Assembly: GCA_951406725.2 (NCBI GenBank)
Contig: OX597830.1
Coordinates: 47,864,001 to 47,928,000, forward strand
Source: Octopus vulgaris
Lineage: Eukaryota
Direction: 5' to 3'
DNA: 64,000 bases
In this document: piece by piece, positions 491-59,300 of the stretch
Layout: each line of letters starts with the position of its first letter
Numbering within the stretch: the first letter of the stretch is position 1
Position numbers and translations under genes: made by a program
The notes under the pieces: generated by a model
Database searches by the model: none
Told to the model about the DNA's origin: nothing
Seen by the model: the letters and a program-made list of their open reading frames with translations, nothing else

Positions 491-808
491 TCATCATCAT
501 CATCATCATCATCATCGTTTAGCGTCCGCTTTCCATGCTAGCATGGGTTGGACGGTTCAACTGGGGTCTGTGAAGCCAGAAGGCTGCATCAGGCCAAGTC
601 TGATCTGGCAGTGTTTCTATGGCTGGATGCCCTTCCTAACGCCAACCACTCCGTGAGTGTAGTGGGTGCTTTTTACGTGCCACCCGCACAGGTGCCAGAC
701 GGAGCTGGCAAACAGCCACGGACGGATGGTGCTTTTTATGTGCCACTGGCACGGGGGCCAGGCGAGGCTGGCAACGGCCACGATCAGATGGTGCTTTTTA
801 CGTGCCAA
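491..808 (-). mobile_element. RTE LINE 3' UTR/tail fragment
   Basis: On the minus strand: GAGTGGTTGGCGTTAGGAAGGGCATCCAGC...AACCCATGCTAGCATGGAAAGCGGACGCTAAAC(GAT)n, the same tail as the RT-bearing copy at 1404-2878. Confidence 0.85.
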
Positions 809-859
809 TATAAATAATATATATATATATATGCTTATATACATACGTATATGTATATA

Positions 860-1340
860 CTTACATCTATATATAGATATATGCTTCTATACATACATAT
901 ATGTATATACGTACATCTTATATATATATATGCGTAAGTGGGCACAGGACATCACGAAACATGTACAACAAAAAAATACGAAGCATGAGTACATGAAACA
1001 TGAACTATTCTTTCGAACAACAGAAGACACAAATGGAAAACAAAACAAACAACATAAAGAATGACCCTTCATCAGTTGTCGGCTGTTTTTCTAGTCTCGT
1101 ATTTCGAACATTTAACAACAATATATACTTTCCATAAAACAGTTGCTCCTGCAAAGCAAATTAAATAAAATTTGGGATTTTGCGGAGGGTCAAAATAGGT
1201 GACACAAACAGGACAGTGAAAACAAACAGGAAGGGCTGCTAAGCCTAAACGAGGTTGTGGTGGCATATGCATAAATCAAGCTAGGACAGGAGACAAACAA
1301 GAACACGTCTCCTTGTTCCAGCTACAAAACAGAGACAAAC
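860..1340 (-). mobile_element. Non-coding repeat (subfamily B) carrying a permuted hammerhead-like motif
   Basis: Similar to 45010-45207 and 58431-58592; flanked by (TA)n; no credible ORF. Confidence 0.65.
1064..1142 (-). ncRNA. Non-circularly permuted hammerhead-like RNA (subfamily B)
   Basis: CUGUUUU-auggaaa-GUAUAU-A-UUGUUG-uuaaaug-UUC-GAAAUAC-gagacuaga-AAAACAG-c-CGACAA-CUGAUGA-AGGGU; stems I and III pair, stem II weak. Confidence 0.55.
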
Positions 1341-9379: not shown

Positions 9380-9499
9380 ATGCTTACAGCACCTAGGTTT
9401 CCCAAGCGGTCACCCATCTAAGTACTAACTAGGCTCGATGTTGCTTAACTTTGGTGATCGGACGAGAACCGGTGCTTTCAACGTGATGTGGCCGTAAGT
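9380..9499 (-). rRNA. Full-length 5S rRNA copy, probably a retro-pseudogene or SINE3 head
   Basis: CTTACGGCCACATCACGTTGAAAGCACCGGTTCTCGTCCGATCACCAAAGTTAAGCAAC...AGTACTTAGATGGGTGACCGCTTGGGAAACCTAGGTGCTGTAAGCAT; no T4 terminator; solitary. Confidence 0.93.
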
Positions 9500-12813: not shown

Positions 12814-12975
12814 TTAATCATAATCATAATAATATTGAAAAATACCTTAGGAATGAGAACCCAGGTTTGAAATTTCCCCAAGACACCTGATGAAGGCTGG
12901 AAGGTATATCAACCGAAACGTTGTGTTAACAGCAAACAAGATGAGGACAAATATCCGTCAAATGTAAATAATGTA
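12631..12975 (+). mobile_element. tRNA-headed element with 3' hammerhead and an inverted duplicate of its head
   Basis: Inverted head 12631-12703 (A box TGGTGTAGTGG, B box GTTCGATTCC), forward head 12726-12777, (AAT)n, then hammerhead. Confidence 0.7.
12882..12927 (+). ncRNA. Minimal type I hammerhead ribozyme
   Basis: GACAC-CUGAUGA-A-GGCUG-loop-CAACC-GAAACGUU-GUGUU; stem I GACAC/GUGUU, palindromic stem III AACGUU. Confidence 0.8.
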
Positions 12976-45009: not shown

Positions 45010-45207
45010 TATATACATGCTTATATGGGTACAGGACGTCAAAAAGACGTGAACAAAATAAAAAAAACGAGAACATAAAAAACAAAAGCATGGAAAATGA
45101 ACTTTTTTTTCAAACAACAAAAGAAACAAACAGAGAAACGAGACAGGCAACATAAAGAACATTCCCTTCATCAGTTGTCCCCTGTTTTATCTACTCTGCG
45201 TTTCGAA
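45010..45207 (-). mobile_element. Subfamily B repeat with a 5'-truncated permuted hammerhead
   Basis: UUC-GAAACGC...AAAACAG-GGGACAA-CUGAUGA-AGGG at 45163-45207. Confidence 0.6.
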
Positions 45208-45520
45208 ATATATATGTGTATGCGTGTGCATGAGAGAGAGAGAGAGTGAGAGATAAAAGGGAGTTTGTGTGTGTATGGGTTCTTTCCTTGTCCTGTCTAT
45301 ATACACACGTGGCAGACATGCAACCCATACCAGCATGGAATATGAACATCAAATGCTGCTGCTGCTGATGATGATGATGATGACAGCTTGTGTTTGGCAT
45401 TTTCCAACCTGGTAGAGCCCATCCCCCATGAGGTTTCACCATGGTAGAGTTCTTCTAGAAGGAGTGTGACAGAGAAAGAGAATGAGAGAGAGAAGCAGAC
45501 AGTCAGAAGAGGAAGTAGAT

Positions 45521-46114: not shown

Positions 46115-46992
46115 TTAATAAATAAAATATATGCATACATACATATATATATGTACATACCTACATCTACATGTATATATACATGCATATATAAACATAT
46201 ATATGTGAGTACAGGACACCACAAATAGACGTAGAACTCAATGAGAAACGAAAACGTAAAAACAAACATGGAAACGGACTTTTTTTAACAACGAAAAACA
46301 GTACAAGACAAGCAATACAAGGAAAATTCCCCTTCATCAGCTGTCCTTGGTTCGACTCCATGTGTGTTTCGAAGGTAAGGACAGAACACGACTCGTCGAA
46401 CTAGCCCTTCCTGCGAAAGAATTAAATAAAATTCCTTTGCAGAGGGGTAAAAACAAGGAAAAGAAAAATGTGACAAAAACAGGACGTAAAAACAATACAA
46501 ATAAAAATACAAAAACAAAATAAAAATACAAATACAAAAAAATACAGTACAAGTAAAGAATAAAAACAGGACAAGGAAAAAAACATTGAGGGCTTTTTTT
46601 TAGCCTAGACGATGGAAAAATTCAAGAGCGCAGGAAAAAAGCATGTTCACTTGCAGGAGGCCGCCAGCGAAAGGAAGTGGTCGACTCGGCTGTGTGAGAG
46701 ATGAGGATGAGTGAGAGAGAGAGAGATAGAGAGGAAAGGAAACCAGAAAGAGTGAAAAATAAGAAGGAGAGAGACAGGCAAAGAGGAAGAAAGACAGGAA
46801 GGAAGGGAAGGTCAAGCAAAGGGTTACAGAGTCGAACAAGGGACAGCTGATGAAGGGGAATTTTCCTTGTATTGTTTGTCTTGTACTCTGTTTTTCGTTG
46901 TTAAAAAAAGTCCGTTTCCATGTTTGTTTTTACGTTTTCGTTTCTCGTTGAGTTCTACGTCTATTTGTGGTGTCCTGTACTCACATATATAT
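46115..46992 (-). mobile_element. Non-coding element (subfamily A) with an inverted partial copy at its 5' side (Penelope-like arrangement)
   Basis: 46115-46690 is collinear with 58730-59300; 46829-46992 is the inverted copy of ~46198-46358. Confidence 0.75.
46329..46404 (-). ncRNA. Non-circularly permuted hammerhead-like RNA (subfamily A)
   Basis: GUUCGAC-gaguc-GUGU-U-CUGUCCUU-a-CCUUC-GAAACAC-acaugga-GUCGAAC-c-AAGGACAG-CUGAUGA-AGGGG. Confidence 0.65.
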
Positions 46993-56330: not shown

Positions 56331-57123
56331 ATCCAGTTAAAGACTTTTTCACTTCCCAAGCGTTATACTAATACATCTATTTGTTGACTACACCACCTGT
56401 CTTCATCTTTTTTTTTGTGAATTCTCCCTCCCCCATATATATATATATATATATGACGGGCTTCTTTCAGTTTCCGTCTATCCACTCACAGGGTCTTGGT
56501 CGGCTCGAGGCAATAGTAGAAGACAATTTCCCAAGGTGTCACACAGTGGGACTGAACCCAGAACCATGTGGTTGGGAAGCCTGCTTCTTTCCACACAGCC
56601 ACGCCTGCGTCTATTGCTGATGCTGTTACTGTTGTCATTAATATTATTTTCAGTTCTGCAGTTATGGCAGTAATACTTAAGTTGCCTCTCAATATATATC
56701 TCTTGGCTTATTGCCGTTGTTGTTGTTGTTGTTATCATTAATAAGGATTTTTATATTGTTACTGCTTTTATTATTGTTGTTGTTGTTGCTGCTGGTCTTG
56801 TTTCTATTGTTTCTTCATTCCACATTATTGATTAGAATTCTCACCTCATTGTTGTTGAAATAACAATAAGCATCAATAAGTTATTGTTGCTGCTGATATT
56901 AGGTGGTTGTAGGGGTGGGTTAGGGTTATGCGAGGGTACGTTTTTGTTGGAGGTCATCTATGGTTATCTGAGGTCATCAGTTGGATTTGATCTCAAGTTA
57001 TGTGTCAAATTAGATTTGATCTAAGGTCATGTGTTGAATTAAATTTGATTTCAGAACAGATTTTCAAACCAAGATGCATTGTAGCCAGCTTACACCAGCT
57101 ACTTAAAGCACACACACATTATG

Positions 57124-57175
<52 letters not shown>

Positions 57176-57278
57176 CATATGTAGTATATATATATGTATA
57201 ACATATATATGTATATATATATGTATAGATCGTTAGCCACTACACACATTTTTTTCTCTCCTTGTTTTTTCTGTGTCC

Positions 57279-57314
57279 CTTTCTGTAGAAGAGCGTAGGT
57301 TCGAAACGTAAAAT
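57279..57314 (+). ncRNA. Minimal hammerhead-like motif, A6U variant
   Basis: UUU-CUGUAGA-A-GAGC-guag-GUUC-GAAACGUA-AAA. Confidence 0.55.
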
Positions 57315-57413
57315 ACTTTTTCTATTCCTGAGCGTTATACTAATACATCTGTTTGTTTTGTACACTCTCGAAACTCTCCCTATATATGTATGTATATATG
57401 TATGTATAATATG

Positions 57414-57479
<66 letters not shown>

Positions 57480-57568
57480 GTATATATATATGTATATATA
57501 TGTATATATATATGTATAGATCGTTAGCCACTACACACATTTTTTCTCTCCTTGTTTTTTCTGTGTCC

Positions 57569-57604
57569 CTTTCTGTAGAAGAGCGTAGGTTCGAAACGTA
57601 AAAT
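57569..57604 (+). ncRNA. Second copy of the A6U hammerhead-like motif
   Basis: Identical to 57279-57314. Confidence 0.55.
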
Positions 57605-57734
57605 ACTTTTTCTATTCCTGAGCGTTATACTAATACATCTGTTTGTTTTGTACACTCTCGTAAACTCTCCCTATATATGTATGTATATATGTATGTATAA
57701 TATGTATGTATATATATATATATATATATATCAC

Positions 57735-58402: not shown

Positions 58403-58430
58403 TATATATATAGAGAGAGAGAGAGAGAGA

Positions 58431-58586
58431 GTAGAAAAACAACCAACAACTGATGAAGGGTCGTCCTTTTGCTGTTTGTTTTGTTTTCCATTCGTGTCTT
58501 TCGTCGCTCGAAAAAATAGTTCATATTCCATATACTCGTACTTCGTATTTTTTGTTGTACACGTTTCATGGCGTCCTGTGCCCTCA

Positions 58587-58729: not shown

Positions 58730-59300
58730 ATAAATAAAATATATGCATACATACAAACATATATGTACGTACCTACATCTACATGTATATATACATGCAT
58801 ATATAAATATATATACGTGTGTACAGGACACCACAAATAGACGTAGAACTCAACGAGAAACGAAAACGTAAAAACAGCATGGAACGGACCATTCCTTTAA
58901 CAACGAAAAAACAGAGTACAAGACAACTACACAAGGAAAAATCCCCTTCATCAGCCGTCCCTAGTTCAACTCCAGCGTGTTTCGAAGGTGAGGACAGAAC
59001 ACGTCTCGTCGAACTAGTCCTTCCTGCGAAAGAATTAAATAATATTCCTTTGCAGAGGAGTAAAAACAAGGAAAAAAATGTGACAAAAACAGAACGTAAA
59101 AACAATACAATTAAAAACAAATACAAAATAAAAATACAATTACAAGAAATACAGTACAAGAAGGAATAGAAACAGGACAGGAAAACAAATAAAGAGGGCC
59201 TATAAGCCTAGACGAGGAAAAAAACTTTTTCAGGAGCGCAGGAAGACACATGTTTACTTGAATAAGGCCACCGGCGAAAGGAAGTTCGTAGACCCGGCTG
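58730..59300 (-). mobile_element. Subfamily A non-coding element
   Basis: Collinear with 46115-46690. Confidence 0.8.
58943..59017 (-). ncRNA. Non-circularly permuted hammerhead-like RNA (best-preserved copy)
   Basis: CUAGUUCGAC-gaga-CGUGU-U-CUGUCC-ucac-CUUC-GAAACACG-cugga-GUUGAACUAG-GGACGG-CUGAUGA-A-GGGG. Confidence 0.7.

Follow-up and report, generated by a model that had tools for sequence, protein, structure and literature searches.

A structured motif carried by a repeat in the octopus genome is predicted here to be a self-cleaving hammerhead ribozyme with a core-opened topology, residing in a non-autonomous Penelope-like retroelement; judged from the sequence and its variation among copies, this is the probable reading. 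The predicted ribozyme is a core-opened circular permutation of the type-SGC and type-CSG hammerheads, which would be hammerhead-like in action and yet is missing one defining feature of every described type. That selection acts on its six-helix structure is regarded as close to certain, and the host element of subfamilies A and B probably belongs to the Naiad group. General background on how hammerheads are numbered and how their core stacks is used throughout. If the prediction is correct, the motif represents a new natural hammerhead topology, breaking the assumption of the six permutations that CUGANGA runs into stem II, and many more such motifs may be hidden since standard descriptors miss it.

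Topology of the motif and its copies in the window

Positions (Table 1) are those of the window, the whole 64,000-nt stretch of DNA that was analysed, and the letters for subfamilies and families (A–F and N) are labels of this study. Three full motifs with cores at 1075, 46340 and 58954 were found in the window, together with three partial motifs. A descriptor combining core and helices returned exactly the three full sites, against none in 40 shuffled windows. In an Rfam scan of the window, a hammerhead model was absent among the matches listed (150 of 174).

Table 1. Features of the motif copies in the window
Feature	Position	Strand	Remarks
Subfamily B copy, 5′-truncated, non-coding Penelope-like repeat	808..1337	-	Flanked by TA-rich runs; ends approximate
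AT-rich tail of the subfamily B copy	808-931	-	
Whole structured motif of the window copy	1063-1191	-	
Helix X, 5′ strand GACCCU	1186..1191	-	Partner 1063-1068
Hairpin H, U-rich loop	1149..1185	-	Begins directly after X, stops directly before G10.1
Stem II, 10.x strand GAGCA	1144..1148	-	Base 1 is G10.1; from unguided helix scan
Outer helix P0, 5′ strand CUGUUUU	1136..1142	-	Connects far ends of stems II and I
Stem III, 3′ strand	1123..1127	-	UAUAU here, CGUAU in B majority
Predicted cleavage site after A17, triplet AUA	between 1122 and 1121	-	Cleavage base A at 1122
Stem I, 3′ strand UUGUUG	1116..1121	-	
Stem II, 11.x strand	1106..1110	-	UGUUC here, UGCUC in majority; preceded by 5-nt linker
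GAAA core and stem III 5′ strand (A15.1-UACG)	1098..1105	-	GAAA at 1102-1105
Outer helix P0, 3′ strand AAAACAG	1083..1089	-	
Stem I, 5′ strand	1076..1081	-	CGACAA here, CAACAA in majority
CUGAUGA core (C3-A9)	1069..1075	-	
Helix X, 3′ strand AGGGUC	1063..1068	-	Immediately follows A9
Subfamily A copy, full motif	46329..46447	-	Core at 46340
Subfamily A copy, full motif	58943..59060	-	Core at 58954
Third-subfamily copy	45165..45208	-	Starts ~10 nt past predicted cut
B-type copy	58424..58459	+	Starts ~20 nt past predicted cut
Truncated A copy	46830..46856	+	Inverted relative to the 46340 copy

Read from 5′ to 3′, the motif opens with helix X, hairpin H, the G10.1 strand of stem II and the outer helix, continues with stem III, the NUH site and stem I, a short linker, and stem II, GAAA and stem III, and closes with the outer helix, stem I with CUGANGA, and X. 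In the order of its blocks S, G and C, and in having a helix that joins stems I and II at their far ends, the motif agrees with a type-SGC ribozyme. Block C, which would run uninterrupted through stem I, CUGANGA and stem II, is broken: the G10.1 strand lies approximately 70 nt upstream and, in place of a direct or 1–2-base joining of A9 to G10.1, X and H fill the step, with zero linker bases both from A9 to helix X and from hairpin H to G10.1.

As linker bases are lacking, X, H, stem II and the A9-G12 pair may form a perfect four-way junction, in which X would stack on H and stem II on the A9-G12 pair. This Holliday-like junction would substitute for the A9–G10.1 bond, and the stack of stem II, core and stem III would be retained because C11.1-G12 stays continuous in it. 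The outer helix would clamp stems I and II, like the I–II helix of type-SGC and type-CSG ribozymes. It is suspected that the transcript cuts itself after base 17, possibly aided by the element's protein, and that the 3′ cleavage product becomes the template for reverse transcription; many new copies would then begin at or just past the cut. Source elements would be under selection, with inserted copies, the window copy included, decaying neutrally. A competing pairing able to trap G8-A9 is possible in A-type copies.

In the window copy the core, the AUA site, stems I and II, the outer helix and X are intact, and hairpin H has a single C-A mismatch close to its base. Stem III is damaged, being reduced to three pairs plus a mismatch and a wobble. 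The earlier note had described the copy as a permuted hammerhead with compensatory changes relative to a second subfamily, and its account was partly confirmed. On the minus strand, the B letters of the outer helix and stem I, the cleavage base A and the cores were confirmed, and the other letters it gave for the A type are present in the copies at 46340 and 58954. The permuted-hammerhead reading holds in part, stem II, X and H having been missed; with a true stem II and these two helices present, the topology is not that of a plain permuted hammerhead, and the structure outruns the span of 1064..1142 first given. An extra AU suspected in stem III, the reason offered for supposing the copy may be dead, does not exist: the window copy has no insertion relative to the B majority, whose stem III is CGUAU/AUACG, a CpG in that stem having decayed to TA. 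Nor is UUCGAAA invariant, since the B majority has CUCGAAA and U is found in only 4 of 30 B loci, the window copy being one with this change of C to U; the AGGG after the core is invariant because it is the 3′ strand of helix X. As for the outer helix, the contrast drawn with GUUCGAC/GUCGAAC was out of register, the A homolog of the B helix being CUAGUUC/GAACUAG and the former pair its inward extension.

Other features were also detected in the window. The motif is flanked by two copies (517-790 and 1424-1690) of a different repeat, which contains 63-nt sub-repeats, a 290-nt tandem duplication at 57120-57731 contains a Penelope-like tail with TTCGAAAC, and a lone 5S rRNA gene or pseudogene lies at 9381-9499 (-) with 103 bits.

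Covariation and core letters among genomic copies

The animal genome searched (G000) comprises 2.8 Gb, and a pattern spanning the layout had 3,700 matches in it against 2 for the control. First-look candidates numbered 3,680 for the window copy (subfamily B) and 2,651 for subfamily A, of which 40 per subfamily were scored; over 191 nt, the window B copy was 92–94% identical to the other 39 best-scored places. A pattern of GAAA followed by the core gave 7,151 exact matches, compared to 50 with a reversed control, with eight of 30 retrieved loci belonging to a different family, F. A set of 90 copies was derived from the first 95 layout-pattern matches, three near-identical neighbouring duplicates being dropped, and was split by eye into about ten subfamilies; clustering on flanks alone was too noisy to define these. 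A set of 30 sequences consisted of 29 of the 90, picked to span the subfamilies, and the window copy. Another set, picked by tail, comprised 70 B and 70 A copies, i.e. the first 71 listed of each less one neighbouring duplicate. Parts of family A were also present in assembled contigs of four organisms.

An unguided Watson-Crick scan of the 90 copies recovered X, H, II, III and I as well as one decoy. In the same copies, stems I and III were paired in 807 of 900 cells, against a mean of 659 and a maximum of 693 for swapped partners. Counting Watson-Crick pairs, the values were 404/450 for stem I over five pairs (swap mean 292), 420/450 for the upstream stem II (324), 315/360 for the base of hairpin H (240) and 387/450 for helix X (356, maximum 368), and the outer helix scored 6.28 with its own partner and 4.76 with swapped ones (sd 0.12, maximum 5.12), although these swap tests overstate significance because the copies are related. 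Stem II is spelled GAAGG/CCUUC in A-like and GAGCA/UGCUC in B-like subfamilies, its closing pair G10.1-C11.1 being G-C in 81 of the 90 copies, and helix X shows a C-G to A-U change between subfamilies. Among the 44 B copies chosen by their 3′ tail alone, the pairings claimed in the earlier note were likewise kept, with paired cells of 182/220 for stem III, 219/264 for stem I and 262/308 for the outer helix.

Over 24 pairs in the 30 sequences, 94.8% of 717 cells were paired, compared to 41–46% in slid controls, and 16 of the 24 pairs had changed on both sides. Such two-sided changes were seen in three of five pairs of stem II, four of five of stem III and three of four of hairpin H (30 sequences). 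The outer helix was excluded from the 24-pair test as its register shifts by one between subfamilies. When changes were placed on a tree (single-column parsimony, midpoint root, columns including X and H), pairing was kept in 32 of 36 changes on internal branches, the terminal ones keeping it in 65 of 210 (Fisher p 4e-11), internal branches being those with three or more leaves and two-leaf branches (3/7 kept) being excluded. Stems I and III alone gave 21/25 internal and 38/93 terminal changes keeping the pairing. The earlier reported covariation of the outer helix and of stems I and III is real across subfamilies and wider than claimed, and selection on structure, proposed at the same time, is supported by the contrast between internal and terminal branches and by the two-sided changes. 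Nested folding was of ordinary stability (z 0.04, 0.39, −1.59 and 0.39), as expected because the RNA is pseudoknotted.

Stems I, II and III, together with the site, were all intact in 41 of the 90 copies. Position 17 was A in 38, C in 27, U in 25 and G in none, and A15.1-U16.1 was present in 86. The commonest cleavage triplets were GUU (24), GUC (18), GUA (16), AUC (6) and AUA (19), and AUA and GUA are among those found in natural hammerheads in the available text of PMC1636495. Among the tail-picked copies CUGAUGA, which represents the majority letters, was matched exactly by 25 of the 44 from B and 29 of the 33 from A, CUGANGA by 28/44 and 30/33, and CGAAA by 33/44 and 29/33, respectively.

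Host element, family N and 5′ ends of truncated copies

Copies of A and B are truncated at the 5′ end, have AT-rich tails ending at TA runs, and occur as partial tandems and inverted pairs, family A having a unit of ~0.8 kb in partial tandem (L034, L036, L053). TA targets and partial tandem and inverted copies are common to A/B, Naiads and other Penelope-like clades; with the Naiads, whose targets are TA microsatellites, the motif layout is shared as well. Unlike Naiads in the available descriptions, A and B are without the ORF (N-terminal GIY-YIG, C-terminal RT) in the loci examined. No same-strand match to 154 Naiad-like proteins was obtained upstream of A-to-E copies in 120 loci of ~3 kb; layout and insertion pattern are therefore the grounds for assigning A and B to the Naiads. 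An autonomous parent of A and B was looked for and not found, and a rare full-length one is possible. Searching the supplement of Craig et al. (2021; PMC8557442) with the A/B core context gave 0 matches. With respect to retrozyme-type arrays, partial tandems were seen and long arrays were absent among the loci, circular RNA being beyond what assembled contigs can show.

Two other identities were considered and rejected. A donor-like motif approximately 500 nt upstream of the core and an AG before G10.1 in A suggested an intron; a splice joint at the repeat was absent from four contig sets, and B and D are mostly without the AG. Family A might also have been the 3′ end of a Neptune-like ORF (L183), where the copy sits behind a TA run, and an A-type motif was absent from the 1 kb after the ORF in nine other listed loci of this ORF group. 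The young Neptune-like Penelope family itself (L181, L183 and L190 on C3, C1 and C18 of G000) has open frames of 753 aa that encode RT plus GIY-YIG and are nearly identical, along with a further frame upstream and 5′ pieces in inverted orientation, and no hammerhead was seen in its 3′ end at these three loci.

Naiads have been described as being without canonical hammerheads, some being marked HHR_core or HHR_half_core, and from this lack it was argued that Penelope-like elements can do without hammerheads (Craig et al., 2021; PMC8557442, in the available part). A pattern built from the 3′ end of the published octopus Naiads detected 433 matches in G000, against 0 for the control, and this family N has the same layout as A and B with different letters. 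Its majority sequence forms stems I, II (6 pairs) and III as well as the outer helix, and also hairpin H, whose U-rich loop is similar; helix X is short, with about three good pairs, and one of 20 N loci passed the full descriptor. The N motif lies 0.8–2.6 kb downstream of same-strand RT fragments in 13 of 30 loci and in 6 of 20, and some of these loci do not extend far enough. The N-linked RT matched RVT_1 with an E of 1e-5, which is under the curated cut-off; of its homologs, P0003 and P0006 have a GIY-YIG before the RT and P0002 an N-terminal GIY-YIG, and a homolog search with the 110-aa RT end gave no match. Should the motif be a ribozyme, the reported absence of hammerheads in Naiads would be resolved and their ribozyme supplied.

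The 5′ ends of truncated copies were scanned from −250 to the tail. For A, the densest 23-nt window of ends starts at −1 and holds 20 of 54 ends (scan p 2e-4, the lowest value that 5000 draws allow), and for B it starts at 0/+1 and holds 11 of 45 (p 0.018). Ends per base at risk were 0.017 in A and 0.008 in B, compared to 0.002–0.004 in both, and the 23 nt ahead of the site held 3 and 5 ends, respectively. At least two of the 20 A ends (L335, L344) are located at inverted junctions. Family N (49 of 50 aligned) showed no enrichment in the window 0..+22 (4/33 ends, p 0.23); a wider window of −2..+45, chosen afterwards, held 14 of 33 ends (p 2e-4), with two in −50..−3. Ends in B and N are blurred by a few bases through TA microhomology. 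The pile-up fits a 5′ end of the template made by a ribozyme. Such a pile-up at the cut would allow ribozyme action during Penelope-like transposition to be read from the genome. For a Poseidon element, hammerhead cleavage required protein; insertion in vitro did not depend on it, and it left no ends in RNA-seq (available part of PMC11167929).

Family F was tried as a positive control for the 5′-end test and gave 1 of 30 ends after its site; it is unsuitable as it is a SINE-like element with only ~25 nt available. This repeat (window 12860-12935, plus strand; L461–L490) has a tRNA-like head, as read by eye, and an AAT run, carries a minimal type I hammerhead whose stem III is palindromic, and had 3,403 exact tail matches.

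Naiads of other phyla, alternative readings and known hammerheads

The 54 Naiad consensus sequences in the available supplement of PMC8557442 were inspected at core-word matches (CTGATGA 60/62, CTGACGA 23/23, CTGAGGA 15/25 and CTGAAGA 30/43, words broken across lines being missed); layouts were read by eye and species assigned by file order. The core-opened layout, X and H included, was recognised in nine of them: three from Acropora, two from octopus, one after the Naiad_EuTe header and three unassigned (parts 9 and 12). Outside octopus, X and H have 5–9 pairs and linkers of 0–1 base. Six Naiads of the nematode parts (13–16) were read by eye as clean type-CSG with block C intact, a type previously known from two metagenome sequences. 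At least two arthropod-part entries have a different S-G-C arrangement, and four ostracod- or crab-part entries defied parsing. On balance, the favoured view is that the core-opened four-way-junction hammerhead would be active and the usual 3′ ribozyme of many Naiads across animal phyla, with nematode Naiads having the parent type-CSG. In that case animal genomes would commonly harbour ribozymes of the non-circularly permuted kind, and the template for retrotransposition would have its 5′ end fixed by cleavage.

A selected fold derived from a hammerhead and no longer catalytic, acting as a signal for RT binding or priming, with 5′ ends piling up by stalling at the pseudoknot, would be in keeping with the missing A9–G10.1 bond, the ordinary stability of nested folding and the weaker and broader pile-up in family N. 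Stalling, however, would be expected from the 3′ edge of the structure (approximately +45 to +58), whereas the left edge of the densest window is the cut in A and B, and the core letters and NUH rule are kept across subfamilies and phyla; this reading is considered unlikely. Chance or common ancestry without selection is scarcely credible, even though the copies are related and the subfamily changes amount to few events, in view of the tree-based contrast, the lack of descriptor matches in the shuffled windows and the recurrence of the same six helices in the same layout, spelled with unrelated letters, in both family N and distant phyla.

Stem II was initially read from the AGGG after the core, and this was demoted by the evidence for pairing with the upstream strand. 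Under the corresponding explanation the motif would be an ordinary type-SGC ribozyme, with the AGGG that follows CUGAUGA supplying stem II in addition to an extra A, and with X, H and the upstream strand forming an off-state or switch. Pairing of this downstream kind was present in 339 of 360 cells, more than with swaps, and shows one two-sided change; a viroid hammerhead is known to have a single additional base following A9 (PMC1636495), and such a base is seen in Hydra-clade elements, as far as the available sources go. Yet only 165 of the 360 cells are Watson-Crick, the match is partly fixed by the search pattern, and the single co-change is explained by helix X, which uses the same base. 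The helix energy is 0 to −1.5 kcal/mol compared to −4.6 to −5.4 kcal/mol for the upstream strand, and the pairing is reduced to two pairs in family N and is absent in the coral and clam-shrimp Naiads of the available supplement. This explanation is rated as quite improbable.

The core-opened hammerhead has its closest relatives among the permuted types of Eckert et al. (2023; PMC10085705), who, in the available text, defined the blocks S, G and C, assumed to be uninterruptible, and validated ribozymes of the SGC and CSG types in which stems I and II are joined by a helix. The octopus repeat shares their cyclic block order, the short linker between stems I and II, the I–II helix and all core letters. 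It differs in that block C is split, X and H lying at the A9/G10.1 step, and in its setting, an animal genome with thousands of copies, SGC and CSG being described there only from metatranscriptomes and metagenomes. For genomes of known organisms the same text gives no non-circular permutation but one doubtful GCS case, so that the octopus motif, if confirmed, would be the first non-circular hammerhead in such a genome save that doubtful bacterial one. The supplement of Eckert et al. (2023) contained no octopus, mollusc or metazoan match, and SGC, cephalopods and molluscs are not mentioned in the available part of bioRxiv 10.64898/2026.07.22.740005. Neither a hammerhead with its chain opened at A9/G10.1 nor a description of SGC or CSG motifs in Naiads was found in the literature searched, subscription papers and bioRxiv supplements lying outside it. 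The CChMVd (+) hammerhead has an extra A10, indicating that the A9/G10.1 step tolerates insertion (available text of PMC1636495); that insertion is one base, whereas in the octopus repeat it is two helices carrying the RNA ends.

With canonical Penelope-like elements and non-LTR retrozymes, as far as these are described in the sources available, the octopus motif shares the presence of a hammerhead in a non-autonomous Penelope-related repeat. To our knowledge, the hammerheads of those elements have so far been nested type I, often minimal. Family N matches published octopus Naiad 3′ ends in the available supplement of PMC8557442.

It should also be noted that arthropod Naiad 3′ ends in this supplement (parts 16–19) have large structured regions ending in a C-run followed by CUGACGA or CUGAAGA, which are likely to be other permutations. 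The hemichordate 3′ ends (parts 25–26) have in common a conserved structured stretch without CUGANGA, possibly another ribozyme.
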